Virus record (IMG/VR): IMGVR_UViG_3300037048_000222
Location: 1 to 33,258 of that record
From: a virus
Lineage: Duplodnaviria > Caudoviricetes
DNA: 33,258 bases
Strand: one strand, 5' to 3'
Under the pieces are notes generated by a model. The model was not told the origin of the DNA. It did not search any database and worked only from the letters and a program-made list of their open reading frames with translations. Made by a program: the position numbers and the translations under genes. Below, piece after piece: positions 2,979-29,697 of this stretch (position 1 is its first letter; the number at the start of each line of letters is the position of its first letter).

Positions 2979-3371
2979 CTACTTCAGCATCACAAATAAC
3001 AAACCCCCTATTTCTGCCAGCACGATCCCAATCACCAGCCGGGTCAACCACTTACGCTCGTCTTTCATTTCAGCTGTCCATTTCTTCAAACTGTGAATAT
3101 CGCCAATTAACCCCGGCTCATCTGCCCGACCACGTAAGGCGAGGGTCAGGTCAGCCATCGCTTCAGCTGCTTTTGTTACCTTGGCAGTAATGCCAATATC
3201 GCCGTTTGTGCCGCGTAAGGCTCGATCATGGATGCCTACCATCTCGATTAATGGTTCCATCCGGGTCTTGATTGTGGATACATCGACCGCGATCTGCGAG
3301 ACTTCTTCTCCGATCTTATCCACGGCTCCTTCGAGCCGTTCAATGCGGTCTTTCTGCGAGCATGGTTCCAT
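2979..3371 (-). CDS. Coiled-coil protein with C-terminal TM helix (XhlA/holin-like architecture)
   Basis: Heptad-like N-terminus, internal ALRG..G repeat and C-terminal LVIGIVLAEIGGLLFVML; last gene of the tail operon. Confidence 0.6.
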   Translation of the reverse strand: MEPCSQKDRIERLEGAVDKIGEEVSQIAVDVSTIKTRMEPLIEMVGIHDRALRGTNGDIGITAKVTKAAEAMADLTLALRGRADEPGLIGDIHSLKKWTAEMKDERKWLTRLVIGIVLAEIGGLLFVMLK

Positions 3372-3372
3372 C

Positions 3373-7862: not shown

Positions 7863-8242
7863 GCGGCCTCCACATGCTTCGTCAATAGGAGCGGGACGTA
7901 AAAGGCATTGGATGCCGCATCCCACATGTTTGTCAGCGAGCGCATCCCGCCCGGCCCGCTGAGGTGCACGCTGCACGCGGTTCCATAGTGGTCGACAAAG
8001 GGTATAACGCCCATCGTCTCAATGGCAGCCATCAGGTCGCTGATCGTGCCCCACTCCGCAGACGGGACTTCCACCAGCGCCTTGACCTCTCCCGACCAGC
8101 CGTGCACAATATTCGGCCCATAGGTGGCGTCCGTTTCACCCAGCAGGGTCTGCCGGACCACCATCGGCTTGACGAAGGTCTGCGTCCAGGTCTTTGCCAG
8201 TGTCACGTACTGCTTGCCGTTCAAGACGACATATTTATTCAT
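7859..8242 (-). CDS. Putative distal-tail (Dit-position) protein
   Basis: 127 aa, translationally coupled between the tape measure and hub genes; call rests on synteny. Confidence 0.55.
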   Translation of the reverse strand: MNKYVVLNGKQYVTLAKTWTQTFVKPMVVRQTLLGETDATYGPNIVHGWSGEVKALVEVPSAEWGTISDLMAAIETMGVIPFVDHYGTACSVHLSGPGGMRSLTNMWDAASNAFYVPLLLTKHVEAA

Positions 8243-11200
8243 CAGGGCGCTCCCATCTCTGCCATCGCCGCGGCAATGGCCCGGATTCGCATCGGATCCA
8301 GGCTCCCGATCTCTTTCATCAGCTCGCCGATGTTGTAAATCGTGTAGTAATTGACCTTCGACATGCCCTCCGCCATGCTGGCCAGGGCATTCAGCATCTG
8401 GAAGGTGGTGTCATACTTCTGCAACTGTTCGTAGACGCCGGAGAGCTTGCCCATGCGTTCGCCTTCCACCAGCAGGCTTTCGTTGTACAGGTCCTGGGCC
8501 TTGGCTACCTCCGCCTGCGCTCCGAGCGAGGCTTTTTGAAGCTGGAGCTGTTCGTACTGGTACTCGCGCGACAGGATCTGCAGCTCGTCCTGCAGTTTTT
8601 TCTGCTGCTCGTACTCTTCCATCTTGCGGGAGAGCTGTTCGCGGTCCATCTTGTAGCCGGTTTCGCGCTGTTTTACGCCCTGGTCGAAGCTTTCCTTGTC
8701 CAGCCGCTGCAGCTCGAGCGTGTAGTCACGCTGCTTCTGGTAGCGCTCGTCTTCCTGCGACCACTGTGTTTCCTGCCGCTCGCGCTGGGTGTCGATCTGC
8801 TGGCCCTCCAGGTTGTGCATGAGCGCCGCCCGGTCCTGCTGCCGGATGGCTTTGCGGCGGTCCCGCCCGGAGGAATAGCGCACCGCTTCATCCATGTCTT
8901 CCATCTGCCAGCCGAACTGCGCTTCACGGGTGGTATCCTGAAACTGCCAGTCTTCCCGCGTCCACCCGCGCTGCTGGAGGCCCTGGGCGTAGCTGGTGTC
9001 CATCGACCACAGGTTGTAGGCGTTGGACACGTTCATGCGCTGCCCCTGGTTTCCCTCCCGCCGGATGGAGAAGCGGTTGGAGAGATCCATGCGCTTGCCC
9101 TGATCGGAGAAGTCTGCCAGCTGCGAGGAATGCTGCAGTTGCCGCATGCGGTTCTCGATGTCCCACGAAGAGCCGGTGGTGGGGGTATCCCATGTTCCGC
9201 CGTCTTGCGCTCCCCAGTAGAACTGTTCGGTCAGGGCGATCCCTGCAAAGGCGATGCCTAAAGATGCATCGCGTGCCTCCCTGGACTTCTGCCGGGCCAG
9301 CTTCTGAACGCCCTGCCGTCCATTGTCCAGGTAAGCCGTGATCATCTGCGACTGCATGGCATTCGGCGTGCCCTCGACCCCCAGCATCCACCCGGCTTTT
9401 GCCTCATCAGTTCCCAGGCCGGGAAATCCATCTAGAGCCGCGCCTGGACCCAGGAATGCCCCCACCACCTGATCAAAGTGCTCGCTGCTGGTGGTGAGGG
9501 GCTCGATATTATCGACGTTCGACCAGAACGAGGCAACGTTCACCGCCCCGCGGCCGCTCGTCTCTGAAATGGGATTGCCGGCCCGATCAAAGAAGCGCCG
9601 CCCAAGATCCTGGCCGGTCTGCCATGACTGAAATGAAGCGGCCCGGCTGTCTCCACCCAAAATAGCGCCCGCCAGCTGCATCTGGCTGGGATCGATGTCC
9701 ATCCGCGCCGCGATTTCGCCAACTGCAATGCTGTCGGCGCCAATCGCCCCTGCAGAGCCTGCCAGGCTGGCGACCATGCCTCTCATGTGCGGTTTGGCGA
9801 GCGATGCGGTTCTGGCGATCGCCGTGTACTCCGGGCTGCTCAGGCGTCCCATGTACTGCTGGGCGGTCGATGTAAGCGACTGCACCAGGGGCATCTGGTC
9901 AGGGCTCAGGTCGTACTTCCTGACCAGGTCAACGCCCATGTTCTCGTACATCTCGTCGGAGGGCATGGTGGCCTGCATCTGGCTGCCCAAAGCGGAGATG
10001 CGCCCGGCGCGATACTCTCCTGTTTCCCGGCCGCGGTTGTCCTGGCCCACATACCAGTTGAAGGCCGTATCGAATGCCGCAGATCCGGTCTTGAAGCCCA
10101 TCGTCTTGGCGTAGTTTTCTGCGCCTTGCGCCAGCGTTTTCGTGCCCAGCCCGCTCTTCCGGGCGATGGCTCCGAAGCTGTCTGTATCGAACTCGTCACC
10201 GAACAGCTGCCGCAGCCTTCTGCCAGCCGCAGATGCTTCTTCCTCTGTCTCATATGCTGAGATTGCGAGGGCAGATATAAACTGCCTGGATTTCTCAACG
10301 TCTCCGTCTGCGCCGCTCTGGCGGTTGGAGACGGCTGTGACGATGGCCTTCTCCTCGCGGTTCATGTGCGCCCAGGCATTTTCGCCTGTGGCAGGGAATA
10401 CGAGCGGCGCCCATGCGCCTGGATTTTGCTCCAGATATTCCTGCTTGGCGCGGAATGTTGAGGAGACATACGCCCCGGTGGCCAGCGCATTCTGGACCAG
10501 GTTGCCGGGCGTAACCACCGGCCGGCCCTGGTATGCGGCCTGGTTGATGCCTTCCATCAGCGCAGCGGAACCAAGCACGCCCCCGGCAAGAACCAGGCCG
10601 GCTGGCCCTGCCGCAGCGGCGGTGGTGGGACTGATCATGTTCATCGAGGCCGCGATCTGGGCACCCATGAAGCCGCCGCCGGCGATGCCGCCCGCCAGGC
10701 CAAGATAATGCCCGGCCCGGCCTACCAGGCCGTTGCCGATGCCGCTGGTCATGTATCCGATATCGGAAAAGCCGCCGTAGATATCGGCGGCAGCTTTGCC
10801 GCCCCGCTCAGCCCCCACGGACCGGCGCGACGCCATTGCGGTGCCGCCCTCGCTGTAGTCGCTGCCAATGGCTGCCATCGTCTCGAACTCATGCCCGAGG
10901 CCGTCCATGTATTTCTCGCTTGCCATGACACCGGGCTGCGCCGACATGGACCACAGGCGCTTGAAGAGGTAGGCGCCATACAACGCTTTGCCCACCTTGC
11001 CGCCCCACATGTTGCCGTTCCGGTTCTCGCCGTCATAGCCGTCGCCGCCGAAGGCAAACGACTTGCCATCCGAGGTGGTCAGGATGGTTTTCTGCTTGTT
11101 GGTGGCCAGCTCTTCCGGCGTCTTGCCCATCTCGGCCATTTTCGTGGCAATCTCGGCGTACTGTGGGTCAGCCGCCATGGCCCTGGCGGTCTCAGGACTA

Positions 11201-14200
11201 CGGACCTGCACCGAGCCAAAGCGGATGCTGTCGGGCATCTCGGCGTCGATCGATGCGCCGCGCGCCACTGCATCCTGCTCAAGCTCGCCGATCACATGCC
11301 GCTTGGCAGCGTAGATGGCCTTCTTGGCAATATCATCCCGGAAGTTGGCAACCGTCTTTGCCAGTTCTGGAGAAATGCCGGACTGTTCAAGCTCCTGGGT
11401 GACCGCTTTCTTCTTGCGGTTCAGCCCGTCGCTGACGCGCTGCTCGAAGGTCGCCACGGCTTCTTCCGGATGGGTTGGCAGCGGCTCGCTCAATGCTTCT
11501 TCAACGGCCTGCTGCCCTGCACCTACCGCCTGGAGAAAATGGCCTGACGGCAAAACCTCTTCACCATTTTTAAAAATAGAGTAGCTGCCGTCCCGGTTCA
11601 TGCGCGCGCTGCCCCTGAGGGCGCTCGAGTATCCGGCGGCCCGCTCGGGGGTGACCTGGGCTTTGGCCTGCCTGGCCAGATCCGCCCGGTTGTAGCGCGG
11701 CTGGCCGCGCCCGCCAGTGCCGGATATGGTGGGATCGTAGTTCTCGTTGACGGGCGCGCCGTTCCAGTAGGGCGTACGGCTCTTTTCCTCCAGCACGCTC
11801 TCCGCCAGCGCCTCAACCGATGGCTCGTCTAGTTCGGGAAATGCCCCGCCGATGATCTCGATGGCCCGCTCGCGTGTGAGGCGCGTGTCCGCTCCCAGAA
11901 AATTCCAGGTATGGGCGATTTCCCGGTTGAAATCGTTCGGGCTTCCCCCCGGCTGGGAGTGAGCCGACCGTAAAGCCGGGTTAGAGCCGGCCAGCATGTA
12001 GAAGGCGTTGAAGCCGCGGTGGCCCTCCTGCCGCAAAGCTTCCGGCATGCCGTTTGTGATGCGCAGCGATCCAAACTGCCTTTGGGAACGGGCGGCACCC
12101 CGGCTGCCAACCGGGACGCCGACGCTGGGTGGCACGCCCCGCTCCACGTCCGCTTTTACCTCATCGCCTTTGGTGAACAGTTGGTATTCGTCATAGGTGG
12201 ATTTATGCAGCACCTTGCCTTCGGGGCTATAGAGCGTGCCGTAGCCGGGGTCCTGGATCTTATCGCCTGTGCTGCGGTACTCGCCCATCGGGTTGGTGGT
12301 CTGGATGGCGTACCAGCCCGGCCCTTCTGCGGCCTGGTCGCTCTCCGTGTAAACCGCATACGTTTCACGTTTGGCGCGCTTGTCCAGATACGACATGCGC
12401 TCCCCTTCGTGGAATTCGGTCGGGCGCTGCTCGAAACGCTCGCGCGGCGTCTGGCTGCGCCGGGGCGTGCTCATAGGCGGCTCGTTGTCGAAAGCCAGCG
12501 GCGGGGCTTCTGGCGGCTGGTTTCCGTTACCGGAACCACCGGAAGCGCGTACCGGATCAAACTGAATGGCCCGCTCCAGCCGGCTGGCCGCGCCACGCCG
12601 GGAGCCGGGGATCAGGTCACTGCCGCTGTTGTCCACGCCGGCAAACTCGTCCATGGAGCGCACATTGCCCGTCCTGGCCTGCCCGCGCGGGCGGTCTTCC
12701 GGATGCGACCTGAACCAGGCGGCCCGGTCCTCTGGAGACAGGCGGCTGATGGCGATGGCGCGCCCCCGGCTCTCAACTTCAGACTGGGGTGGGGGAAGCG
12801 CTTCACCTGGCTGGGGTGTGGTGGGTGCAGGGCGCTTGCCGGAGTACTTGGCCCGCTGGGTGGCTTGAAAGGTGGCGATGGACATGCGCGTTTCAATGTC
12901 GCTCGCCACGGTCCGTGAGTTTTTGCGCGTTTCTTTCTTTTCCAAAAGCTCTCGCCCGACGCGCACCGAGAGGTCGTTGGCGGAAACCAGATCGTCTACC
13001 GAAGCATAAGCGGCCTGCTGCAGGTGGCTCAGCGCCATATCGGAACTGCTTTCGACATCGACCTCGTTGGGGCTCTGCTCCAGCCTGATCTGGTCATTGG
13101 CGCGCCGCTTTGCCAGCACCGGGTCGTTTTTAGGATCGTAGTTCACCGCGTTCACGCTCAATACATGGCTGCGGTCGTACTGGTCGGGATAGGGCGTTTG
13201 CCTGCCGTACAGCGGCAGTTTTTTAACGACCTGCTGGCCCTGCTGGTTCACGCCGTACACAACGCCGGTGCGGTGCGTGCCTGCTGCGCTGCCAACTTTG
13301 CGCTCCCACCAGTTCGGTGACTGGTCTGGGACATGCACACTCGCCCTGGCGCTGCGTGCGAGCACATCTTTGTCAACTGCGTTCACCCCGCCGATATAGC
13401 CATCTGTGCGGGGCTGGTCGCCGGCTGCAAATTCCCACAGTTCGGCGTCGCTGCCCAAAACGGAGTTATCGCTGTCTGAAGGGTTGTACTGCCCAGAGGC
13501 GGGCTGGATGCGGTTCTCGCGTATATCGGCCTGCAGCCGCCGCAGCGGGGTGTCATTTCGGGCGAGAACATTCTGGTGCCTTTGAGACACGCCCTTGTGC
13601 AGGGTAACATGCAAACCCTGGCCGACCGGCTCGTAATCCTGCGGCAGGCTGGATACCCACGCGTCAAATTCACCTGACTGGCTGACTTCATCGCGGTAGT
13701 CGCGCTCGCCCAGCCCGCCTTCTTCGCGTGCCAGGTCGGTGATGGTCTGCTCGCGCAGCGGGCGCGGCATATATGGGCCGGCCTGAATTTTGACCAGCCG
13801 CTGCTGAAAGCGCTCGGAGAAAACGCCGTTCGGATCTGCGCTTGCCCCAACCGGCTCGGCAAACAGCATATTGATCGTCCCGCCGCCCTCTAAGGTATCG
13901 GCGGCGTCCGCCACCGCATTGCCATACCCTTCTTCTATCACATCGTTGAAGCCCAGCGCCACCCAGCCGCTGCGCACCCCCGCTTTATACAGCGGGCTTT
14001 CCGGATTGATTTCCGATATCTGAAGCGATGCGCTGCCAAACTGCCCGTATTTGCCCCAACTGCCACGCAGGCCCAGCTGCTGCATGGCAAAGTCGTTTTG
14101 GGTGTGGGGCTGGTAGATGGGCGGGTTTGAATACGGCGCGCCGGCAATCTCGCTGATATCCGGCTCGCGCCCACCGTTATCGACATCGCTTTCCCAGCTC

Positions 14201-14973
14201 TTGCCCTTGAGACCGGTCTGGATCAGCTCCTGCTGCATGTAGTCGTGCGTGGCGGTGAAGGCCTTGCGGGAAGCCCAATCCTGGTACTGCAGCGTGCGCT
14301 CGACGCCGCTGCTGTCCACGAATTTAGGCCGGTACTCAGGCATGGTCGCCAGGTGGTTGAGGCGCATGTGCTGCAGGACATCGGCCTTGTCCTGCCCGAG
14401 CTTGCCCAGCGCCACCGAGCGTTCGATGAAGCCCGGATCGACGGTTGAGACCAGGAAGTTGGCTGCATCGCGCGCGCTGCGCACCTGGGTCAGCTCGGGA
14501 TACAGCTCGCCGACCTGCTTGCCTTCCACCACCTGGCGGGTGAGGTTATCGAAATTGAGCGGCTGGCCGAGTACCATGCCAACGGCCTGCGGGTATTTCG
14601 TATAGTATTGGTCTTTGGTGAGCAGCGTGCCGTCCGGCTGCTTGCCGGCCCGGATGGCACCCGCGCGCGCCTGGCTGGTGAACAGGTCCGCCAGCACCCC
14701 GCCCACGTAATTTTGCAAAGCGGTCGGGACGCTCCGGCCGAACTGCAGTGCTTCGGCAAAGGAGTACTCTAAAACGCCATACTCCTTATCGAAGTTGGCT
14801 TCTTCGAGCACGCTTTCAGCCCGGTGGGAGGCCTTGAAGTAATCGGAACCCGCCGACTGAAAGCGAAAAGTCTCGTCGCGGAATTTGGGATTGGAGCGGT
14901 GGTCGCGGCCATGCAGGTCCACTTCCTGCTTCCACTGGTCCATGAATTTCTGCAGCCGGGGGTCGCGCGCCAT
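8242..14973 (-). CDS. Tape-measure-like protein with very large N-terminal extension (~2243 aa)
   Basis: Directly follows the frameshifted tail chaperone. GAGGA RBS favours ATG 14973. Gly/Ala-rich hydrophobic helices and a long Q/E/R-rich coiled coil in the C-terminal half. Confidence 0.8.
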   Translation of the reverse strand: MARDPRLQKFMDQWKQEVDLHGRDHRSNPKFRDETFRFQSAGSDYFKASHRAESVLEEANFDKEYGVLEYSFAEALQFGRSVPTALQNYVGGVLADLFTSQARAGAIRAGKQPDGTLLTKDQYYTKYPQAVGMVLGQPLNFDNLTRQVVEGKQVGELYPELTQVRSARDAANFLVSTVDPGFIERSVALGKLGQDKADVLQHMRLNHLATMPEYRPKFVDSSGVERTLQYQDWASRKAFTATHDYMQQELIQTGLKGKSWESDVDNGGREPDISEIAGAPYSNPPIYQPHTQNDFAMQQLGLRGSWGKYGQFGSASLQISEINPESPLYKAGVRSGWVALGFNDVIEEGYGNAVADAADTLEGGGTINMLFAEPVGASADPNGVFSERFQQRLVKIQAGPYMPRPLREQTITDLAREEGGLGERDYRDEVSQSGEFDAWVSSLPQDYEPVGQGLHVTLHKGVSQRHQNVLARNDTPLRRLQADIRENRIQPASGQYNPSDSDNSVLGSDAELWEFAAGDQPRTDGYIGGVNAVDKDVLARSARASVHVPDQSPNWWERKVGSAAGTHRTGVVYGVNQQGQQVVKKLPLYGRQTPYPDQYDRSHVLSVNAVNYDPKNDPVLAKRRANDQIRLEQSPNEVDVESSSDMALSHLQQAAYASVDDLVSANDLSVRVGRELLEKKETRKNSRTVASDIETRMSIATFQATQRAKYSGKRPAPTTPQPGEALPPPQSEVESRGRAIAISRLSPEDRAAWFRSHPEDRPRGQARTGNVRSMDEFAGVDNSGSDLIPGSRRGAASRLERAIQFDPVRASGGSGNGNQPPEAPPLAFDNEPPMSTPRRSQTPRERFEQRPTEFHEGERMSYLDKRAKRETYAVYTESDQAAEGPGWYAIQTTNPMGEYRSTGDKIQDPGYGTLYSPEGKVLHKSTYDEYQLFTKGDEVKADVERGVPPSVGVPVGSRGAARSQRQFGSLRITNGMPEALRQEGHRGFNAFYMLAGSNPALRSAHSQPGGSPNDFNREIAHTWNFLGADTRLTRERAIEIIGGAFPELDEPSVEALAESVLEEKSRTPYWNGAPVNENYDPTISGTGGRGQPRYNRADLARQAKAQVTPERAAGYSSALRGSARMNRDGSYSIFKNGEEVLPSGHFLQAVGAGQQAVEEALSEPLPTHPEEAVATFEQRVSDGLNRKKKAVTQELEQSGISPELAKTVANFRDDIAKKAIYAAKRHVIGELEQDAVARGASIDAEMPDSIRFGSVQVRSPETARAMAADPQYAEIATKMAEMGKTPEELATNKQKTILTTSDGKSFAFGGDGYDGENRNGNMWGGKVGKALYGAYLFKRLWSMSAQPGVMASEKYMDGLGHEFETMAAIGSDYSEGGTAMASRRSVGAERGGKAAADIYGGFSDIGYMTSGIGNGLVGRAGHYLGLAGGIAGGGFMGAQIAASMNMISPTTAAAAGPAGLVLAGGVLGSAALMEGINQAAYQGRPVVTPGNLVQNALATGAYVSSTFRAKQEYLEQNPGAWAPLVFPATGENAWAHMNREEKAIVTAVSNRQSGADGDVEKSRQFISALAISAYETEEEASAAGRRLRQLFGDEFDTDSFGAIARKSGLGTKTLAQGAENYAKTMGFKTGSAAFDTAFNWYVGQDNRGRETGEYRAGRISALGSQMQATMPSDEMYENMGVDLVRKYDLSPDQMPLVQSLTSTAQQYMGRLSSPEYTAIARTASLAKPHMRGMVASLAGSAGAIGADSIAVGEIAARMDIDPSQMQLAGAILGGDSRAASFQSWQTGQDLGRRFFDRAGNPISETSGRGAVNVASFWSNVDNIEPLTTSSEHFDQVVGAFLGPGAALDGFPGLGTDEAKAGWMLGVEGTPNAMQSQMITAYLDNGRQGVQKLARQKSREARDASLGIAFAGIALTEQFYWGAQDGGTWDTPTTGSSWDIENRMRQLQHSSQLADFSDQGKRMDLSNRFSIRREGNQGQRMNVSNAYNLWSMDTSYAQGLQQRGWTREDWQFQDTTREAQFGWQMEDMDEAVRYSSGRDRRKAIRQQDRAALMHNLEGQQIDTQRERQETQWSQEDERYQKQRDYTLELQRLDKESFDQGVKQRETGYKMDREQLSRKMEEYEQQKKLQDELQILSREYQYEQLQLQKASLGAQAEVAKAQDLYNESLLVEGERMGKLSGVYEQLQKYDTTFQMLNALASMAEGMSKVNYYTIYNIGELMKEIGSLDPMRIRAIAAAMAEMGAP

Positions 14974-15026
14974 GGGTCCTCGCTTTTGTCTAAGGCGGAT
15001 GGGGCCGGAGGCGAACCCCACCCACC

Positions 15027-15260
15027 TTATTTGGTTGCTGCCGCCTCGCTGCGTTCCCGCAAGCCCTCGATCACCCAGTTCTTGAAGAACTTCCGGTAAA
15101 AGGCCGGCTCTTCCAGCAGCGTCGCGAAAAGGGGCCGGCCGTCGTTGAGTGAGGCGATGGTGATCTCAAGCAAGCCCTGCAGGATCGGATCGTCGCTTTC
15201 GCCGGTCAGCACGGCGTCTTTGACGATATCCGCTAGCTGGTCGAGGTCTTCACTTTTGGG
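15027..15260 (-). CDS. Tail assembly chaperone C-terminal extension (gpT-like), reached by -1 frameshift
   Basis: ORF lies in the -1 frame relative to 15233-15667 and is entered at C-CCA-AAA, continuing PKSEDLDQLADIVK... Confidence 0.8.
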   Translation of the reverse strand, partial: PKSEDLDQLADIVKDAVLTGESDDPILQGLLEITIASLNDGRPLFATLLEEPAFYRKFFKNWVIEGLRERSEAAATK

Positions 15261-15667
15261 CGGACCGGCCCCCAGGTGGGGATCGCATCCCCAACGGCGT
15301 CCCACAGCTCTTTGATCATTTCATGGGTCATGCAGCTCAACACGGCCTCGATCTCGGTCGTGCTGGCCCCAGCCTTGATAATGGGTTCACCGCCGTCTTC
15401 CACCGGGCTCTCGTCATCCACGGGAATATTGGTCCCGCCGAAGGTCAGGGCGATCTCGCGAAACGCCACTTCGGTGGATGTGGGCGGGTATTCACGCTGC
15501 ACGCCGTCTGCGCCGACCTGCACGCGCCCGTTCACCATGAAGCGCTGCATCTCCAGCTCATTGCCCGAGGTGGGCGGAGCGATCTTCCACCACCAGCCTT
15601 CTTCCTGTTTAAAGTGATACGTAACCGGCACGATCACGGCATATTTGCCGAATGTCTTACGAGCCAT
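15233..15667 (-). CDS. Tail assembly chaperone (gpG-like)
   Basis: 144 aa between major tail and tape measure genes, GGAGG RBS, slippery site near the 3' end. Confidence 0.8.
   Translation of the reverse strand: MARKTFGKYAVIVPVTYHFKQEEGWWWKIAPPTSGNELEMQRFMVNGRVQVGADGVQREYPPTSTEVAFREIALTFGGTNIPVDDESPVEDGGEPIIKAGASTTEIEAVLSCMTHEMIKELWDAVGDAIPTWGPVRPKVKTSTS
15254..15260 (-). other. Programmed -1 ribosomal frameshift slippery site CCCAAAA
   Basis: X-XXY-YYZ heptamer correctly phased (CGC CCA AAA GTG) just before the chaperone stop, in the canonical lambda G/GT position. Confidence 0.85.
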
Positions 15668-15686
15668 GCTGCGCCTCCGAATTGCC

Positions 15687-16709
15687 TTAGTAGCTTGCTT
15701 CTGTATTGGTAAGGGTGGCGGTGATGGGTGCGGTTTCCGATGCCAGAAACACCCCGTTCACGGCCATGACAATTTGACCGCCGGCGCGCGACCCGACCGG
15801 GGATGCGCTCCACACGATGTTGGCTCCCGAGCCTGTCTCGCCGTTGGCCTGGATCGAGAGCTTGTAGGGCACTCCCGTATCGGCTTCGATATCGGAGACA
15901 AATTCCAGCTTGATGTTGGCCTCTCGAAACAGCGAAGCGGTCCAGGCATTGCCCGCCGCCGGGTCGTACATCATCTTTTTATAGAGCGTGGCATCGGCGA
16001 TCTTGACCAGCAGCTGCAGGGCAAAGGCGCGCTGCACGATATCCATGGCGTGCGGGCTGTACGAGCCGATCACCCACTGCTCTTCCAGCGGGATGGCCAT
16101 GCCGGCTGAGAAGCTGCCCGACAGCACCGCCGTGGCGCTGCCGGAGGGCAGCTCGATGGTGGAAACGGGCGAGATGAACTGCGGCCCGCCGTCCACCTGG
16201 GCCGCCGCATTCCAGGATGTGGTCACGACCGGCGTAGGCAGCCCGCCGATAAAGCCCACCGACGAGCGCACGAAGTTCGCGCCGCGGAATTCCAGCGACA
16301 GGGCATTCACGCGCACGTCCTGCAGCTGCTCGCCCCACATATTGCCTGGCGCGGAGCGCACCGTGAAGTAGGGGGCGGCGAACTGGTCCGTGCCCAGCTT
16401 GAAGGCGTGGTCGTAGGCTAATCCGTTGGGGATGGTGGTCACGTCGCCGAAAGCGCCCAGCAGGAAAAGCCCGAGCGAATTGGGGCGCGGCACCATTTCC
16501 ACCCCGCCGCCGGAAGTGACGCCCATCTTCTTCATATCCCTGAGCATGGCCCCGCCGCCGACCTCGGGTTCGAGTGGCAGGACAACGTTATTGGGAGCGA
16601 CGCCGCCGTTGGCAAACAGGATGTACTTAAAGGCCGCATCCGAGACCATGGGGATCCCTTTTACTGCTTGTTTGGCGAAACCGAGCAGTGAGGCATTTGC
16701 AGAGGTCAT
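15687..16709 (-). CDS. Major tail tube protein
   Basis: 340 aa, beta-rich, with N-terminal LLGFAKQ...G, central LGLFLLGAFG...YDHAF and C-terminal ITATLTNTEASY patterns typical of tail tube proteins; synteny agrees. Confidence 0.8.
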   Translation of the reverse strand: MTSANASLLGFAKQAVKGIPMVSDAAFKYILFANGGVAPNNVVLPLEPEVGGGAMLRDMKKMGVTSGGGVEMVPRPNSLGLFLLGAFGDVTTIPNGLAYDHAFKLGTDQFAAPYFTVRSAPGNMWGEQLQDVRVNALSLEFRGANFVRSSVGFIGGLPTPVVTTSWNAAAQVDGGPQFISPVSTIELPSGSATAVLSGSFSAGMAIPLEEQWVIGSYSPHAMDIVQRAFALQLLVKIADATLYKKMMYDPAAGNAWTASLFREANIKLEFVSDIEADTGVPYKLSIQANGETGSGANIVWSASPVGSRAGGQIVMAVNGVFLASETAPITATLTNTEASY

Positions 16710-17260
16710 TGTGAACCTACTCTTTCAGTCGTAAGGACTTCAAAACGGATTTTGATGTGAAAGTCGTATGCGCCCGGCCCACCCGCCTGGGCGACAACGC
16801 CCCGCAGGTTCTCGGATAGGACGCCGCGCGAGACATACTCATCCTCGGTGCGGATATCGGCGAAGCGGGCAGCCAGCAGCGCCCTTTCGATCCTGGAACG
16901 CACCACGGAGGCGATTGTATGCGCATCTGAAAGCTCTTCCTGCGTGCCCTCCAGCAGGCAGCGGCATTTGGCGGTAAAGCGCCGCTTCCAGGTGATGGTC
17001 GTGCCGATCTCGATTTCATCGACCCGGTCCTCCCACGGTTCGGGATCGTTTCCGATACCGGAACCTTTGATGGCACGGTCGGGGTCGTTGTAGTAGAGCT
17101 CGACCGAGATGCGCGCCGTATCCGGATCCGGGTCGCCCTGCAAGGGGCCGATCTTCACCACACCGGCGCGCGCTGGATCTTCCGCATCGATGCTCGTGAT
17201 CAATACCTCTTCCAGCGTTTCGGCGATGCGGTCTAAGATGGGCTTGTGGATTCCGCTCAC
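16706..17260 (-). CDS. Putative tail terminator/completion protein
   Basis: 184 aa, acidic, immediately before the major tail gene with overlapping start and stop; call rests on synteny. Confidence 0.6.
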   Translation of the reverse strand: MSGIHKPILDRIAETLEEVLITSIDAEDPARAGVVKIGPLQGDPDPDTARISVELYYNDPDRAIKGSGIGNDPEPWEDRVDEIEIGTTITWKRRFTAKCRCLLEGTQEELSDAHTIASVVRSRIERALLAARFADIRTEDEYVSRGVLSENLRGVVAQAGGPGAYDFHIKIRFEVLTTERVGSQ

Positions 17261-17898
17261 CGGCGTGCTCCCATGCGGTACAGCACGATCATGCCGCCGT
17301 GGATGCGCTCTGCAATGCCGCGCTCGTAGTCGCGCATCAGGTCGGCCACTTCCGGCTCGAGCGGGTTGTCATCCCGCCCGCCGGTGGGCTTGAAGCGGTC
17401 CAGGGCGGACTGCTTGGAGCGCATCTGGCTGTAGGCTTTGGCCTTTACGTATAAACGGATCAGCTCCAGATCGGTGTCCGGAACGGTGAGCGTACATTCG
17501 GCATCCGCAGTGGGCGGAACGGCATGGGCAGAGAAATAGGTCAGAAGCACCGGCTGCTCAGTGGCTGCGTTGAGATACAGCCGCCCGCCCATGCAGTAGT
17601 AGGTGACCACTTTGGGCCGCTTGGGCTTGCGTGTGCCTGGGCGGACCTCTTTCCGTTCCAGATAGGTGTCTGCGGGACATTCGACGTAAATATCCTGGAT
17701 AAAGTCGATTGGCAGCATGTACCCATCGCCATCGGGGACCAGCTGCGTGCGGTCGACACGCTTGGGGAACCACATCGAATAATCCCGCAGGCCGTCCTTT
17801 GCATACAGGTGCAGCAGGTCATCCGACCAGCGCTTCGTGGCAGCGGTGTCCTGCAGGTCGTATCTGATATCGGAAAGAAGCTCCGCCCAGGTGCTCAT
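17257..17898 (-). CDS. Head-tail adaptor/neck protein
   Basis: Follows the capsid gene. N-terminus MSTWAELLSDIRYDLQD...RWSDDLL has the helical pattern of head-completion adaptors. Confidence 0.65.
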   Translation of the reverse strand: MSTWAELLSDIRYDLQDTAATKRWSDDLLHLYAKDGLRDYSMWFPKRVDRTQLVPDGDGYMLPIDFIQDIYVECPADTYLERKEVRPGTRKPKRPKVVTYYCMGGRLYLNAATEQPVLLTYFSAHAVPPTADAECTLTVPDTDLELIRLYVKAKAYSQMRSKQSALDRFKPTGGRDDNPLEPEVADLMRDYERGIAERIHGGMIVLYRMGARR

Positions 17899-17901
17899 GG
17901 C

Positions 17902-19170
17902 TCAGTCCGTCGAACCGGCAGTGAAATGCACTTCGATGAACTCGGGCCGGAATTGCTGGAACTTCAGGAAGCCGCGCCAGCCGTAGCGGTTGATCATCTG
18001 CAGGTCGTCGATCTTGGGCGGGAAGATGGGGGTGGGGCGCTCGCCGCAGCCCACCACGACCGCCGGCCCGCCGATAAAGATCGAGCCGTGCAGGTCGATG
18101 CCGTTGGTGACCAGGTCGCCCGCGGCGTGCGTTTTAAGCAGCGGCTTTTCAAATACCAGCCGGTTCTGGCCCACGTCAATGGCGACGATGCGCCGTGTTT
18201 CCTGCTCGCCGTCGCTCTCGATGGGCGGGTTGCCGGCCCCGGATACGCCCACGTTGTGAATGGTGACGGACTGCCCGACCGTAAAGCCGGTCACGCTGGC
18301 AACTGCCACATAGCGCACGGAGTTGGCCTGGCCGACGATGTAGACCTGGTCCACGGATGCCGCCGAACCCTGGCCGGGGACGGTGGGTGAAGCCAGCGTG
18401 GTTTGGGTGATGACCGCTCCGTGATTTTTGAGCACCTGGCGGTTGGTGCGCACGTAGCGCACGCCGGCCCAGGTGCCGACTTCATTGGTGAATTTGCGAC
18501 CGGAGGCGTGGTAGTTCTGCACCTCCAGCCAGCCGGAGCCGGCTGCGGTACGGATATCGTGGATCACGCGCGGCGTGGTGATGCATACGATGGCTCCACC
18601 CTCGCCGTCCTGCACCCCGATAATGCCGGGCACTTCGGCTTCTTCCAGGTGGGTGCGGGCCAGCTCGCCCAGGTCCGGGTCGAACAGGTCCGCCTGCGTG
18701 ATGGCGATGCGGCTGGCGCGCTGCCCGCCGGCGTAGATCGGATAGGGGTGGGACAGGAAAGCGTTGCGAGCCAGGATATCCAGCATGTCGCGCATGTTCT
18801 GCCCGATCTTATCCTTGACCAGGCCCTTAATATCGCCGCGGTTGACGTACTGCACGATATCGGCGTAATCCGAGAACTTCAGCGTGTCGCCGTGCACTTC
18901 CAGCCCGATCTGCACCGAGCGGCTGTCCAGGTGCGCGCCGCGCAGCCACAGGTCCTGCTCGGAGAGCGGGTTGTAGTTGGGGTCGGTATCGAACACTTCG
19001 GTATAGTTGATAATGCCGGTATCCTTGGCGCGGAAATCCTCTTTCCACACGCAGAACGGCACCATAATAGACTTCACCCGCAGCGTCTCCAGCAGCACGC
19101 TTTCGTAGTACGTGCGCTGCCAGGCCGGCAGGCTGGTCGAATACATTACTCCAGACTGGTACTCAGCCAT
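17902..19170 (-). CDS. Major capsid protein (N4-gp56-like family, HK97 fold)
   Basis: 422 aa after the scaffold gene. Motifs include TYYESVLLETLR, CITTPRVIHDIR, NEVGTWAGVRYVRT and C-terminal IDDLQMINRYGW. Confidence 0.85.
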   Translation of the reverse strand: MAEYQSGVMYSTSLPAWQRTYYESVLLETLRVKSIMVPFCVWKEDFRAKDTGIINYTEVFDTDPNYNPLSEQDLWLRGAHLDSRSVQIGLEVHGDTLKFSDYADIVQYVNRGDIKGLVKDKIGQNMRDMLDILARNAFLSHPYPIYAGGQRASRIAITQADLFDPDLGELARTHLEEAEVPGIIGVQDGEGGAIVCITTPRVIHDIRTAAGSGWLEVQNYHASGRKFTNEVGTWAGVRYVRTNRQVLKNHGAVITQTTLASPTVPGQGSAASVDQVYIVGQANSVRYVAVASVTGFTVGQSVTIHNVGVSGAGNPPIESDGEQETRRIVAIDVGQNRLVFEKPLLKTHAAGDLVTNGIDLHGSIFIGGPAVVVGCGERPTPIFPPKIDDLQMINRYGWRGFLKFQQFRPEFIEVHFTAGSTD

Positions 19171-19186
19171 TCATCACCTCATCAGG

Positions 19187-19816
19187 CTATTTGTTCTTGC
19201 TCTCCAGGAACTTGTAGTAGTCGTCCCACGCCTTGCTTCGTTCGGTGGAGCCGAGCGGCAGGCTTTCGATGTGCCGGTTCCAATCCGCTTCGTTGGCGGG
19301 GGCGCTGGCGATCTTGGTCTGGAGAGAGGACGTTCCAGGGGTTGCCCCGGCGAGCAGCTGCTTCTCGCGCTCGGTCACTGCGGCGTCTGCAAAGCCGGCA
19401 AACTCTTTAAGGACGGTCTCCAGCGCTTCCCCGTCGGTCAGGTTGGGGATGCTGTCGATGATCCTGAGCAGGTCGGGCCGGTTCAGCTTCCTGGCGGTCT
19501 CGACCTTAAGCTTCAAGGCCCGCAGTGCGTTCAGTTCAGCCTCAGCTGCCGATGCAGTTTGCACAGCGCTTTGCAGCTGCTTGTCTCGCTCGCTGATGGC
19601 GACCGTTTTTTCGGTGTCCTTCAGGGACAGTTGCGCCTTTAGCTGCTCGATTTCCGAGGACTTCAGGGCAAGCTGGTCTGTCAGGCCACGGTTCGCCAGC
19701 GTGAGCTGCTCGACCTTCTGGACCATGCCAGTAAAGCGAGCCTGTTCTACATACCCAGTGGGCGCCTGCTGGTGAGAGGTGTCCTGCTCATCAGGGGTGA
19801 TCGGGGTGTCTGTCAT
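19187..19816 (-). CDS. Capsid scaffolding protein
   Basis: GGAGG RBS before ATG 19816; long coiled coil; lies between portal and capsid genes. Confidence 0.75.
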   Translation of the reverse strand: MTDTPITPDEQDTSHQQAPTGYVEQARFTGMVQKVEQLTLANRGLTDQLALKSSEIEQLKAQLSLKDTEKTVAISERDKQLQSAVQTASAAEAELNALRALKLKVETARKLNRPDLLRIIDSIPNLTDGEALETVLKEFAGFADAAVTEREKQLLAGATPGTSSLQTKIASAPANEADWNRHIESLPLGSTERSKAWDDYYKFLESKNK

Positions 19817-19817
19817 T

Positions 19818-19967
19818 TCATTCCTCCGCCTGTTTTGCAACAAGCTGCGCCAACGCAAATACCGCCTGGTTGGTCTGTTCCAGTAAGGCTTGAATTTCGA
19901 CGAGCTTGCGCTCGATCTCGTTTAGGCCGCGGTCGCACTCAACGCAGTTCTTGCTCGATGGCTGCAT
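19818..19967 (-). CDS. Small hypothetical protein (49 aa, CxxC plus coiled coil)
   Basis: Below the ORF-track cutoff. AAGGA RBS, MQPSSKNCVECDRGLNEIERKLVEIQALLEQTNQAVFALAQLVAKQAEE; stop lies 1 nt before the scaffold ATG. Confidence 0.6.
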   Translation of the reverse strand: MQPSSKNCVECDRGLNEIERKLVEIQALLEQTNQAVFALAQLVAKQAEE

Positions 19968-20091
19968 TCTTTTCCTTTGGGTGTTGGCGTTTCCGGTACC
20001 GGATACGGTCGTACCTGGACCAGTCCAGGCTTATTCCGGGATAAGTGAGCTCATCACTTTTTTCTGGTAAATGTTGGGACCGGGTTTTCAT
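19939..20091 (-). CDS. Small basic hypothetical protein (50 aa)
   Basis: ATG overlaps the portal stop (ATGA). MKTRSQHLPEKSDELTYPGISLDWSRYDRIRYRKRQHPKEKNAAIEQELR fills the gap. Confidence 0.4.
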   Translation of the reverse strand: MKTRSQHLPEKSDELTYPGISLDWSRYDRIRYRKRQHPKEKNAAIEQELR

Positions 20092-21587
20092 TCGGCCTTC
20101 TTTGTCGTTTGCGGCGTCAGCTTGCCGGCCTGTGCTTCCTGCACGTCGCTTGAGGACTGCTGGAACTCCTTGAGCGCTTTCATCAATTCTTCGTCCTGCA
20201 GCATGGCTTTGATGCGCTCGACCTCACCTGGCCCGCGCCCCAGGATCTTCTGGGATGTTTCCAGGGAGATGGCGGGTGGAGTGGTGGAGAGCAGCTTGAC
20301 CACTTCATCCACCGTTGCCTGGTGGTCGCGCGGCAGCACCGGCGCGAAGGAGGGGATCACGCGCCGCTCGATGATGCTCTTGACCGCCCGGGCGGGAATG
20401 TCGGAGAAGTTCTTCTGCTGCAGGATCCTGGCGGACATCCACAAGGCACGCGCAATGCCGCTGCCCATATAAGCCCGCATGCGCCGGGTGGCTTTGATCA
20501 GCGGCCACATGCGGATCTCTAAAGTGGAGCCCGAGCGCTGCGAGCCTTCATCCTCGCCAAAGGAGATGGGCGGGGCAAAAGAAGAAGTGCGCGCCCAGTC
20601 GTACAGGAAAGAGACGTGCTTGTGCGCCCCTTCGCCGGTGGCGGCCTTGGCCTCCAGCAGGCCCACTTCCGGGGGCGGGGTGCTGCCGATCTGCCGGCCC
20701 AAATCCCACAGGGCATTGGGCCCGAGCGGGAAGTGGCGGGCGTTAAAGCTGCGCGGCAGGTTGCGGCCCCAACGCACGGGGTGGGCGTTGTAGTTGAGCG
20801 CTTCCCCGATATCCGCCACGCGCGCGTTCAGCTCGTCCTGCACCGAGATGATGTCTTCGGTGAGCGCATCGCCCCACCAGTTGGTCGAGCGCAGGCGCGG
20901 GATGAAGACGAAGGGCACGAACCCCCACGGGTTGACGCCCGAGTAGGCTTCGATGCGCGTGCCGTCGACTTTGTTCTCATAGCTGCTGCGGGTCCAGTGC
21001 TCGACCCGGTAGATGATCTCGCCTGAACTGGAGACGCCGTATGCGCCTTGCGCCTGCTCGGAGGTCATGGGGGTGACCACGTACACTTCCAGCAGGATAT
21101 CGGCGTCGTCCGGGTCCCACACCGGGAAGAAATTCTGGATCGGCACGTGATACCACTGGATGTGGCCGGGTTTGGACAGGTTGGGCGTGACCTTGACCAC
21201 ACCGCCGCCGTAGATGTTCATATCCAGCGCCACTTCCCACAGCATGGTGTCGCCGTTGGAGGAGCGCAGGATCTCAGCGGACAGCTCGATGGCCTGCCGG
21301 ATGGGGTCATCCACTGCCACGTCCTTGCGGGCCTCGAAGGAGATAATCTGGTCTTCCCATTCGCCGAACAGGCTATCGGTCTGGGCTAGGCACAGCATCT
21401 TGACCAGGTTGATGCCCACCGGGTACATCAGGGGCGCATCTTCGCCGGCCTCGTCTGGGATGTGTTCGGAGAAGACCAGCCCGTCATAGTAGCGGGCGTA
21501 CTTCTCTCGTAACGCAATTTCGCTCTCCCAGGCGAGAGAGCTGACGGAAGAGACGCTGCCCAGGTCTGACCACTGCGGAAAGTGCAT
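20088..21587 (-). CDS. Portal protein (SPP1 gp6-like)
   Basis: 499 aa with RYYDG, INLVK...DSLFGE, NPWGFVPFVFIP, IISVQDELN, SGSTLEIRMWPL and ISLET motifs. Confidence 0.9.
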   Translation of the reverse strand: MHFPQWSDLGSVSSVSSLAWESEIALREKYARYYDGLVFSEHIPDEAGEDAPLMYPVGINLVKMLCLAQTDSLFGEWEDQIISFEARKDVAVDDPIRQAIELSAEILRSSNGDTMLWEVALDMNIYGGGVVKVTPNLSKPGHIQWYHVPIQNFFPVWDPDDADILLEVYVVTPMTSEQAQGAYGVSSSGEIIYRVEHWTRSSYENKVDGTRIEAYSGVNPWGFVPFVFIPRLRSTNWWGDALTEDIISVQDELNARVADIGEALNYNAHPVRWGRNLPRSFNARHFPLGPNALWDLGRQIGSTPPPEVGLLEAKAATGEGAHKHVSFLYDWARTSSFAPPISFGEDEGSQRSGSTLEIRMWPLIKATRRMRAYMGSGIARALWMSARILQQKNFSDIPARAVKSIIERRVIPSFAPVLPRDHQATVDEVVKLLSTTPPAISLETSQKILGRGPGEVERIKAMLQDEELMKALKEFQQSSSDVQEAQAGKLTPQTTKKAE

Positions 21588-21601: not shown

Positions 21602-21639
21602 AAACAAAAAGAGGGCTGAGAATTTGTCTCTCAGCCCTC
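21602..21639 (-). terminator. Intrinsic terminator inside the late operon, just upstream of portal
   Basis: Perfect 11-bp stem GAGGGCTGAGA/TCTCAGCCCTC, 7-nt loop, followed by UUUUUGUUU on the minus strand. Confidence 0.85.
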
Positions 21640-21642
21640 CGG

Positions 21643-21927
21643 TTATTCGGTCGGGAACTTGATCTTCTTGCGGCACTTGAAGCCGTTTAGTTTTTGGTCC
21701 ACCTGGGCGATGGTCGGGCTGCCTTCGTGGACGTGCAGGATCGAGATGTACTGCAGCCCGTTCCTGATCTCGCAGATCAAAGAGCGCTCCGCGCCGTTGA
21801 TCTCCATCACATGGGTGACTTCCCCGGCGCTGATCTCCATACCGTACAGCTCGCCGAACTTCAGCGCCCGCAGCGTTTGGAGGAGCCGGGCTTCATTGTC
21901 CGTTACTGCTACCTGGTATCGTATCAT
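21643..21927 (-). CDS. Tandem DUF2292/YezD-like small protein (putative transcription antiterminator)
   Basis: Two similar halves, EARLLQTLRALKFGELYGMEISAGEV and ERSLICEIRNGLQYISILHVHEGSP...KKIKF, resembling the DUF2292 pattern L..I.FG.V.I.VHDG.....EKIRF. Confidence 0.6.
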   Translation of the reverse strand: MIRYQVAVTDNEARLLQTLRALKFGELYGMEISAGEVTHVMEINGAERSLICEIRNGLQYISILHVHEGSPTIAQVDQKLNGFKCRKKIKFPTE

Positions 21928-21940
21928 GTTCGCTCCGCGC

Positions 21941-21978
21941 TGTCAAGTATAAATTCCATTTGGAATGTGTAAATTGCA
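21941..21978 (-). promoter_or_regulatory. Internal sigma70-type promoter overlapped by a tandem operator
   Basis: TTTACA (21973-21968), 16 bp, TATACT (21951-21946). Operator units TGCAATT-TACA-CATTCCA and TGGAATT-TATA-CTTGACA, separated by 2 bp. Confidence 0.65.
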
Positions 21979-22200
21979 AGCCATGCAGGGGCAGCCTTTC
22001 TGCTGGTAGTTCTGGCAGTACCGCCGGCCGTCTTTAGGAGCGACGATCGTCTTGCCGGTCAGCGCGCAGCGTTCCAGCTCGTTCTTGTTGTGGATGGCCT
22101 TGTAATAGACCAGCCGGTGTCTGCACCAGGTGCAGTCGTTGTGGTGGATGATGCGCTCGAGCTTGTTCCACTGGAAGATGTTTCCGGTACCGGAAGTCAC
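21943..22200 (-). CDS. Cys-rich putative zinc-binding protein (85 aa)
   Basis: CTWC...C...C...CPCMAC; start overlaps the terminase stop (GTGA). Confidence 0.65.
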   Translation of the reverse strand: MTSGTGNIFQWNKLERIIHHNDCTWCRHRLVYYKAIHNKNELERCALTGKTIVAPKDGRRYCQNYQQKGCPCMACNLHIPNGIYT

Positions 22201-23690
22201 CGCCGCCTGCGCCGGTTGGTGCGGATATCGCGGTTGCGGAAGTTGGCTCGCTCGGCGTTGACGTTCTGCTCCTCTTCCTGCTGCGGAATATACCTGGATA
22301 AAAAGGCCACTTCGGCCAGCGCCATGACGATATCCTGGGGAACCTTGTTATCGGTCTCGCGCGTGTAAGAGCCCATCTGCCGTTGAATACCGCGGATCAC
22401 TGGCCATGAAATCGAGTGGTCGGCCACAGCCGTGATCAGTGAATTGATCATGGCATTCTTGTCCCGCCCAAAGTTGATCCCGTCCACGGATATGCCGTGG
22501 TTTTCGAAGGCCAGCTCGTCGATCGCCTTCTGCGTGCCGGTGGTATCCACGCCTTTCAAGACTGGGCGGTACTTGTTGATGGCATACTTGTACGAAAGCA
22601 GGAAAGGTGTATAAGCGCCCCTGCCATCGATCCAGTGGAAATACACGATCTGGTTGGGCTGTTTGGACACATCCAAAACGGCCACAACCGGGGCGTTGCG
22701 GCGGGGCGGGCCGTCCGTGCCTGGGTCGCCGCCCATGACATACACGCCTTTCGGATCCGCCGGCAGTTCAAATAAAGTCACGCCGTAGCGGGGATGCTCC
22801 TCCATGCGGTAGCCTGGTTTGGGCTTGCCGCTTTCCGGCCTGAGCCCCAGTTCCACCGCGTCGTTCAGGGACTGGTCCGTGCAGGCTTCGACATGCACCG
22901 AGGGGAACATCGACATGCCGTAGTCGGGGAAGAAGCCGCGCAGCTCCACGTCGATCATGTCGTCCGAGTACTCTTCTTCCATCAGGCGGATGGTATTCGG
23001 CGTCAGGCGAATATTGTCATAGGTGGCGATGCGCATCGAGAAGAAGTCGTTCAGGCTGGCTTCTGGGTTTTGCTTCCAACCCTTGAGAAAACGTTCCTTG
23101 AGCCAGGCGGTTGCGGTGGGGGAGGTGGTCATATCCAGGCGGTTCATGCGCTGCGTGCCATCCGGGCGCACGCCTCTCAGGCGGCCTCTCAAGACCTTCA
23201 CGGTCTCTCCGACCACATCCAGCCCGGCTTCGTCGTAGTTGATGCGGTCAAACTCCTGGCCGCGAATAAAGCGCCCATCTTTGCCGGCGGTCCGGAAGAT
23301 CCACTCGGCGTAGTTCTTAAAGCGAATCGTGGGATAGGGCCGCAGCACGATGTCGTCGATCAGATGCTCCAGCCTGGGGTTGCCTTCGATCCAGGGCATG
23401 ACCATCTCAAACGGCAGCTCGGCCTGCTTGGCAGTGACGGACGTGTTCAGGCAGCGAAAGAAGGGGGTGGTGATGCAGTCCATCATGTAAGAGGCCGCCA
23501 CAGATGTGGTTTTCCCCGTAGCGATGCCGGCGATGAAAGTGGTGTTGGGGATCATGGACTGGTGGAACATGTACTGGTACCAGATCGGCTCCCAGCCGCG
23601 CAGGTACCACTGCGTGGCGATGTGAAACTCGCCGTGCTGGCGCAGGGCGCGCGGCAGCATCTCCAGGTCGCCGTCCGTCAGCAGGCTCAT
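22197..23690 (-). CDS. terL: Terminase large subunit
   Basis: Walker A AGIATGKT, IRGQEFD, Walker B INYDEAG, coupling motif TTSP, TYDN; nuclease domain with GGDPG, GVDTTG and QDIVMALA. Confidence 0.93.
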   Translation of the reverse strand: MSLLTDGDLEMLPRALRQHGEFHIATQWYLRGWEPIWYQYMFHQSMIPNTTFIAGIATGKTTSVAASYMMDCITTPFFRCLNTSVTAKQAELPFEMVMPWIEGNPRLEHLIDDIVLRPYPTIRFKNYAEWIFRTAGKDGRFIRGQEFDRINYDEAGLDVVGETVKVLRGRLRGVRPDGTQRMNRLDMTTSPTATAWLKERFLKGWKQNPEASLNDFFSMRIATYDNIRLTPNTIRLMEEEYSDDMIDVELRGFFPDYGMSMFPSVHVEACTDQSLNDAVELGLRPESGKPKPGYRMEEHPRYGVTLFELPADPKGVYVMGGDPGTDGPPRRNAPVVAVLDVSKQPNQIVYFHWIDGRGAYTPFLLSYKYAINKYRPVLKGVDTTGTQKAIDELAFENHGISVDGINFGRDKNAMINSLITAVADHSISWPVIRGIQRQMGSYTRETDNKVPQDIVMALAEVAFLSRYIPQQEEEQNVNAERANFRNRDIRTNRRRRR

Positions 23691-25814: not shown

Positions 25815-25861
25815 TGGAATTTAGTAATTCCAATTATAATTCTTAAGTTCCAACAAGTCAA
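25815..25861 (-). promoter_or_regulatory. Near-consensus sigma70 promoter of the lysis/packaging operon with tandem operator
   Basis: TTGACT (25861-25856), 17 bp, TATAAT (25838-25833). Operator units TGGAACT-TAAG-AATTATA (25852-25835) and the perfect TGGAATT-ACTA-AATTCCA (25832-25815). Confidence 0.85.
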
Positions 25862-28328: not shown

Positions 28329-28366
28329 GAGCCGGGAGGTAAAAAGCCTCTCGGCTCTTTTTATTT
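28329..28366 (+). terminator. Intrinsic terminator
   Basis: Stem GAGCCGGGAGG/CCTCTCGGCTC followed by TTTTTATTT. Confidence 0.8.
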
Positions 28367-29663: not shown

Positions 29664-29697
29664 AGCCGGTAGGTTCACAGCCTGCCGGCTTTTTTTA
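29664..29697 (+). terminator. Intrinsic terminator after ssb
   Basis: Stem AGCCGGTAGG/CCTGCCGGCT followed by a run of seven T. Confidence 0.8.

Follow-up and report, generated by a model that had tools for sequence, protein, structure and literature searches.

The window analysed here is the whole linear virus record IMGVR_UViG_3300037048_000222 (33,258 nucleotides (nt), approximately 42% complete), and the system in question lies on its minus strand between the terminase and portal genes, where a gene for a 94-amino-acid (aa) protein is followed by a small predicted RNA hairpin, an overlapping intrinsic terminator and then the head and tail genes (Table 1). The minus-strand order runs from the holin-like, HNH, M23 lysin, LexA-like and terminase genes, through those for an 85-aa Cys-rich protein and the 94-aa protein, to the portal, capsid, adaptor, tail tube and large virion genes. 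The module—gene, hairpin and terminator—is real and strongly conserved.

Concerning the terminator, its fold reaches -22.5 kcal/mol (z -5.06; equally stable shuffles 1 in 200), and the first-pass annotation of this DNA was right in placing a strong terminator before the portal, the stem only being longer than the 11 pairs counted there. The portal start codon is found 22 nt beyond the stem and 12–15 nt beyond the tail, with no sigma-70-like site detected in between, as that annotation had also proposed. Its further claim, that the structural genes lie behind this terminator, is borne out by open reading frames (ORFs) that continue on the same strand from 21587 through 2979, i.e. over 18.6 kb, a block whose promoter-like sites (9, shuffles 6.2) and terminator-like sites (14, shuffles 16.5) stay within what chance would give.

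The hairpin is built of a 3-bp outer stem, a GA/A internal loop, a 3-bp inner stem and a 6-nt loop, the last containing the TAA (21645-21643) of the 94-aa ORF (21927-21643); 55 nt separate this stop codon from the portal ATG. The lower 6 nt of the terminator 5' arm are common to the hairpin. Both this overlap and the enclosed stop codon had been recognized in the first-pass annotation, whereas the hairpin itself had been drawn too small, lacking the outer stem and the internal loop. One copy of the motif was found in the window, and the hairpin stretch alone is not unusually stable (z 0.46). Since the terminator state (-25.4 kcal/mol) is computed to be 10.8 kcal/mol more stable than the hairpin state (-14.6 kcal/mol), the default is predicted to be off. 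In Rfam, at the gathering score, a tRNA was the sole match in the window, leaving the hairpin uncovered, and no Rfam match was seen at the motif in further loci (7 at E ≤ 5 and 14 at E ≤ 1).

Table 1 Features of the proposed switch region and of the gene blocks on either side of it (window coordinates)
Feature	Position	Strand	Remarks
Promoter-like site (11/12)	25833..25861	-	heads holin-like, HNH, M23 lysin, LexA-like and terminase genes
Terminase large subunit	22197..23690	-	PF03237; upstream of the gate
85-aa Cys-rich gene	21943..22200	-	stop codon within P2 -35 box; no known family
P1, weaker nested promoter	21946..21973	-	final -10 base is the first base of P2 -35
P2, near-consensus promoter	21918..21946	-	-35, 17-nt spacer, extended -10
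94-aa gene	21643..21927	-	tandem DUF2292-like halves; predicted RNA-binding antiterminator
Predicted antiterminator hairpin	21635..21655 (motif 21654-21636)	-	CCC-GA-CCG-loop-CGG-A-GGG
Intrinsic terminator	stem 21640-21610, U-rich tail 21609-21600	-	13 pairs counting G-U
Portal	20088..21587	-	PF05133, E 4.7e-9; first gene past the terminator; ATG at 21587
Remaining gated block: capsid, adaptor, tail tube, large tail or virion proteins	2979..20088	-	

The conservation was followed in 63 loci anchored on the portal rather than on the gene, 61 of which remained after two partial matches had been dropped. The gene directly precedes the portal in 45 of the 61, lying 13–513 nt ahead of the portal match. 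With duplicates removed, a terminator is present in 34/39 distinct gene-bearing loci vs 0/14 distinct gene-less ones, the span searched being 155 nt in the former and 520 nt in the latter; gene and terminator are kept and lost jointly. A strict hairpin descriptor, written from the same loci and tested on 41 of them (the 39, the window and L090), matches 30, one at a wrong site, compared with 3.4 in shuffles and none of 16 gene-less loci. The conservation of motif and terminator in homologous loci is thus as the first-pass annotation would have it. The overlap of hairpin and terminator amounts to 6–12 nt in 29 of the 30 matches, one being the miscalled site, and the hairpin often lies past the stop codon, its start ranging between 31 nt ahead of that codon and 19 nt beyond it; the element is therefore not a by-product of protein coding.

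Pairing was counted on 28 rows (24 strict equal-length matches and four added by eye), leaving out five matches whose loops are longer and eight loci in which the motif is degenerate or missing. In this alignment 94.2% of cells pair, five of the seven pairs change on both sides—one of them being C-G in 17 rows and U-A in 10 with zero mismatch—and the unpaired A residues are invariant. Three of five covariation measures exceed all 500 shuffles, although these figures are inflated by the selection for pairing and by shared ancestry. It may be added that an exact scan with the window motif returned 25 matches, 23 of them due to chance and two representing true loci, and that in L026/L058 (5704-6001) the gene stands 13 nt from the portal with both hairpin and terminator absent, a possible intermediate of decay.

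The 94-aa protein itself matches nothing in Pfam, PHROG or NCBIfam. Its relatives number 73 at E ≤ 0.001, mostly of 76–110 aa, and 72 sequences were aligned; the family matched by most of these members is PF10055 (DUF2292), with 12/72 at E ≤ 1 (best 0.0015) and three for the next family. The AlphaFold model (pLDDT 96.9) consists of a strand-helix-strand-strand unit followed by a helix-strand-strand-strand unit, and the two halves align mutually at 91–94% probability, the repeats occupying the whole chain, which does not match the single-domain form of about 40–65 residues. With a first, shallow DUF2292 alignment of 16 sequences, the whole protein scored 5.6% and its halves 34% and 14%, while 10/72 members exceeded 5 bits vs at most one in shuffles. 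With an alignment widened by phage single-domain ORFs, hhalign gave 75.8% for the N-terminal and 85.5% for the C-terminal half, and the single-domain profile found 23/72 family members above 10 bits vs none in 10 shuffles. The N-terminal half retains the helix and the glycine of the helix-G-strand-DG-strand unit, the C-terminal half the hairpin and the basic terminal strand; the residues R55, K84, R86, K87, K88 and K90 are basic in 64–100% of members. Both the kinship with DUF2292 and the tandem fusion, suggested from the letters in the first instance, have thus held up, the link, as judged from profiles, appearing clear at the level of the family and weak for the window protein.

It should be pointed out that neither Foldseek (E ≤ 0.001) nor VIA (Z ≥ 5) yielded a match, which proves neither that the fold is new nor that it is known; the best of the listed VIA matches (Z 4.6, root-mean-square deviation 3.9, 46 aligned residues) is an unrelated chain, and the CAT fold is not among them. 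A sequence search of the PDB gave nothing significant (best E 0.25). No CAT_RBD domain was matched by the 94-aa protein or found among the 25 top-listed Pfam families of the 72 members, and no PRD regulatory domain was matched in the protein; PF17356 (XtrA) is likewise unmatched by it and absent from those 25 families. The Pfam, PHROG and NCBIfam scans of the 72 members revealed neither N/Q antiterminator families nor any DNA-binding family, so that the earlier opinion of a protein unrelated to lambda N or Q finds no contradiction in the family or fold searches. Acetyltransferase-like look-alikes and a low-confidence model from the ESM Atlas were not used, and L001, from a single-protein virus scan, proved to be a chance antisense match.

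The same RNA element was also sought independently of the protein, with a pattern of motif and U-tract taken from a Bacillus variant and holding no protein information. At least 120 virus loci were obtained, 76 distinct among these. A DUF2292 profile built beforehand found an upstream ORF at ≥ 13 bits in 15 of the 76 and, after iteration, at ≥ 10 bits in 31, 30 of them by then inside the profile; the opposite-strand control of 237 segments reached at most 3 bits. All 31 positive loci—about half of them close kin—belong to the 51 with a Watson-Crick stem and a terminator, none to the other 25. Moreover, 9/10 phage ORFs tested from motif loci match PF10055 at E ≤ 0.1, one at 30 bits. The genes behind the element, in the part of the motif loci that was scanned, encode portal, head protease, terminase small subunit, capsid, methyltransferase/ParB and sigma factors. 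For single-domain genes, the distance from gene stop to motif reaches 189–1216 nt. Starting from the protein instead, the element follows in 6/12 DUF2292/YezD loci with downstream sequence (four by pattern and two variants by eye; two are near-identical), which, together with the motif-first scan, gives substance to the first-pass statement that such a motif follows YezD/DUF2292 genes. A virus scan with the DUF2292 alignment ended with 0/16 candidates confirmed.

Several of these loci deserve separate mention. In L107, L112, L115, L119, L134, L138 and L143, where no family gene lies close by, motif and terminator stand ahead of genes for capsid, portal, protease or a regulator; these loci are possible targets in trans. 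In L145 (119-352), the gene ahead of the motif codes for another tandem DUF2292-like protein, to all appearance an independent one. Related small genes with the motif occur in L127, L104, L117, L224—the Streptococcus satellite phage Javan375—and their kin, several of them with a partial internal duplication resembling XtrA.

Outside phage virion operons, the element follows yezD ahead of cysH-sat-cysC in Bacillus mycoides, Bacillus sp. N5-665 and Cytobacillus spongiae; in N5-665 the genes that follow are unannotated in the record. The Bacillus order is S-adenosylmethionine (SAM) riboswitch, yezD, motif with terminator, and cysH (L098 2287-2736, L100 2268-2681), which amounts to tandem control of cysH-sat-cysC. 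As far as PBSX-like elements are concerned, XtrA genes (PF17356) lie upstream of positive-control sigma factor genes in AP45 (E 3e-23) and PBP180 (E 9e-22). In AP45 (L226 948-1010), the exact motif overlaps a terminator before the sigma factor gene, XtrA being two genes earlier with one other gene between it and the motif; PBP180 (L225 1073-1198) has a different hairpin with a terminator in that place. One motif-linked single-domain ORF matches both PF10055 and PF17356, although the sequence link from XtrA to the family is weak (3–8 bits). The accessible parts of PMC4374763 and PMC8347963 state no function for XtrA.

The start of the 94-aa gene is occupied by predicted promoters. The spacer of P2 contains both the Shine-Dalgarno sequence (21936-21933) and the ATG (21927-21925) of the gene, and P2 was called in 40/41 loci, in 37 of which an ATG or GTG stands 4 bases 5' of the -10 box, in frame and open in 32. 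This triplet is also a promoter feature, carried by 8/10 gene-less promoters; a Shine-Dalgarno sequence within the spacer is, however, found in 24/40 gene-bearing vs 0/10 gene-less promoters, which argues that the triplet is a real start. A second -10-like TA, completed by the first T of P2 and corresponding to P1 in the window, occurs in 19/40 vs 0/10 (background 8.4%); the p-values of these comparisons ignore the relatedness of the loci. A promoter was called in 10/14 gene-less loci, P2 being retained also where the gene is absent. The relatives of the 85-aa Cys-rich gene precede the late promoter in 10 gene-bearing and four gene-less loci.

Judging from its position, the P2 transcript would start near codon 6 of the gene, yielding a non-coding leader some 300 nt long. 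Being the main regulated transcript, it would consequently fail to encode the protein, for which P1 or the lysis-terminase transcript from upstream would be the source; the promoter-like site near 25833 is a possible second source of antiterminator mRNA. The first-pass annotation had the protein acting on its own transcript; with the best conserved promoter inside the gene start, the action would rather be in trans on the leader, not only on its own mRNA. The operator-covered promoter claimed there fits P1, covered by an inverted repeat (21948-21958/21961-21971), and not P2; a conserved operator palindrome was rejected as unproven, palindromes being present in 21/40 relatives vs 15.9 in shuffles. 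Leaderless translation from P2 was ruled out in the window, where no start codon lies near the predicted +1, whereas 7/40 relatives have an in-frame ATG there and could be leaderless and self-amplifying. A 6–7-nt half-site recurs as inverted repeats, in opposite arrangement, at the holin promoter (25833-25810) and P1 (21966-21953), and the 81-aa LexA-like gene (23932-23687) is a candidate to encode its binder.

Based on the above results, the 94-residue protein is probably a site-specific antiterminator of the BglG/RAT (ribonucleic antiterminator) kind from an unrelated protein family. In the mechanism proposed, P2 would fire strongly and its leader, begun inside the gene, would end at the terminator. 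Protein made from P1 or from the lysis-terminase transcript would grip the GA/A internal-loop hairpin—transcribed before the terminator is complete—in the nascent RNA via its basic C-terminal strand. The hairpin so held would withhold six bases of the terminator 5' arm, leaving a 7-pair stem six bases away from the U tract, so that termination would be blocked and the head and tail genes switched on. The protein would thus act in trans as a delayed late-gene switch, for which positive feedback would be unnecessary, and the tandem fusion likely mimics a dimer of the single-domain form.

Several points weigh against this antitermination. The window protein has no PF10055 match, failing to reach the curated cut-off of 22 bits, and scores just 2.1 bits on the single-domain profile. 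Of the gene-bearing loci, 5/39 are without a terminator by script, and L026 has the gene with neither hairpin nor terminator. Two of the covariation measures failed to beat the shuffles (285 and 122 of 500), the descriptor and the alignment rows were picked from the same loci, and the counts overstate independence since the loci are related. Among the well-formed motif loci, 20/51 have no family gene within 260 nt, two of them having one further upstream, and 6/12 protein-first DUF2292 loci lack the motif. Finally, a gap of 10.8 kcal/mol is large for a small protein, unless the order of folding during transcription helps.

Four other explanations were weighed. A ribosome finishing the 94-aa gene might cover the terminator 5' arm, in which case read-through would be confined to translated transcripts (those of P1 or from upstream), the untranslated ones of P2 would end there, and the protein would serve another purpose. 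Such attenuation is suited by the position of the stop codon, which in the window precedes the terminator arm by 3 nt and in several relatives falls within the stem itself, and by nested promoters that would give one translated and one untranslated transcript; but the distance from stop to motif spans -31 to +19 nt among the tandem members and reaches the hundreds of nt and more given above for single-domain genes, AP45 has another gene between XtrA and the motif, and the invariant unpaired bases together with the conserved basic face of the protein suggest specific recognition. This explanation is considered unlikely, though it stands foremost among the four. Placed just behind it is processive antitermination of the lambda N/nut, HK022 put or conAn type, in which RNA element and protein would modify the polymerase to pass later terminators too. 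The conAn layout described in PMC8191782 is indeed alike, a long operon being headed there by a small gene and then an RNA element; yet the element here, of about 21 nt, shares its bases with one terminator, while the conAn2 regions given there measure about 260–600 bp, and the 18.6-kb block holds no strong internal terminators that would have to be passed.

Doubtful to a closely similar degree, and ranked third, is the view that the protein is a negative regulator, or that a host factor binds the hairpin; termination, processing or decay would then be what the protein promotes. The joint loss of gene and terminator is compatible with either sign, and the motif loci without an adjacent gene (20/51) would fit; the terminator is, however, already favoured without the protein, only a positive factor being therefore needed, and the hairpin competes with the terminator and adds nothing to it. 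It is very improbable that the protein acts at the DNA level, loading on the polymerase at P2 in the manner of Q or activating the promoter, with the hairpin as a pause signal only: a strong promoter, a short terminated leader and a regulator made upstream do reproduce the lambda pR'/tR'/Q layout, but the conserved covarying element is RNA-like and located at the terminator, phages devoid of the gene retain P2, and no DNA-binding family was matched.

Antitermination at the hairpin invites comparison with known systems. In BglG, SacY, LicT and GlcT, the protein stabilises a short RAT hairpin that excludes an overlapping intrinsic terminator, and the CAT domain is all-beta. The likeness is the predicted local logic of an internal-loop hairpin that overlaps and excludes a terminator; the 94-aa protein differs in having no CAT_RBD or PRD match, no regulatory domains and an alpha/beta model, and the RNA has one GA/A internal loop and controls phage virion genes, not sugar operons. 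In lambda, the strong pR' gives a short terminated non-coding 6S leader ending at tR', Q comes from an upstream transcript, and the late genes lie behind; Q binds DNA and polymerase and acts processively. The circuit position—promoter, terminated leader, upstream-made regulator, late genes behind—is shared, whereas in the present phage conservation points to an RNA hairpin at a single terminator as the target, and the regulator's own start encloses the promoter. The module is akin to BglG/LicT-RAT locally and to lambda Q in its circuit, and belongs to neither. With DUF2292/YezD/OscA (PF10055) there is common ground in the resemblance of either half to a portion of the domain and in the occurrence of the same RNA element after yezD; the 94-aa protein differs as a tandem fusion below the Pfam cut-off. 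PBSX XtrA resembles it as a small gene upstream of a positive-control sigma factor, with motif and terminator in AP45, the sequence link being the weak one already given. As for LicT, PMC7430163 describes binding to two bulges. According to PMC8191782, conAn of pLS20 shares a small protein gene and a downstream RNA element heading a long operon in a mobile element, and conAn2 (260–600 bp) antiterminates alone and processively in cis; conAn is set apart by element size and published behaviour, the 55 nt here being too short for such an element. OscA is described in the accessible part of PMC3596284 only as co-transcribed with a sulfate-binding protein gene. A literature search whose scope excludes the original OscA and PBSX studies, which could hold one, found no account of an antiterminator function for DUF2292/YezD/OscA.

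Regarding the source of the phage, Anaerolineaceae and Bellilinea are the labels on the portal relatives, and an Anaerolineaceae assembly also holds the 94-aa family; the host, as far as such labels tell, is therefore probably a bacterium of the Anaerolineae. The 94-aa gene was found in 1/401 sampled genomes of the host class, that one being the starting genome itself. The gene order, with the lysis genes 5' of the terminase and the gate between terminase and portal, is unusual (window 33258-20088). A tRNA gene lies close to the left end (432-504, minus strand), and three strong terminator-like hairpins (28329-28357, 29664-29690 and 31521-31566, plus strand) occur among the rightward replication-side genes.

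Taken more broadly, and with the arguments for and against evenly balanced, DUF2292/YezD/OscA, the tandem fusions and probably PBSX XtrA may form one superfamily of 45–95-residue RNA-binding antiterminators. Through recognition of a GA/A internal-loop hairpin, its members, distributed over Bacillota, Chloroflexota and other groups, would gate not only the virion operons of phages but also late sigma factors and the operons for sulfur assimilation; in the Anaerolineae-type phages studied here, the regulated promoter would be built into the regulator start codon, with nested promoters separating synthesis of the switch protein from that of the leader. Two traits set this phage group apart, namely the tandem fusion and the placing of a promoter within the start codon. 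Laboratory Bacillus subtilis and E. coli reporters lend themselves to testing the idea, given that Bacillus sulfur operons carry the element after yezD and PBSX-like elements carry it beside XtrA; some 50 residues of protein and their 21-nt target would, moreover, make a compact orthogonal switch for synthetic circuits. If the binding proposed here holds, this is a new form of protein-dependent antitermination: a widespread uncharacterised protein family would gain a function as a family of tiny antiterminators undescribed so far, and phages would have a way of controlling late genes that differs from N, Q, put, sigma factors and activators of the RinA/ArpU type.
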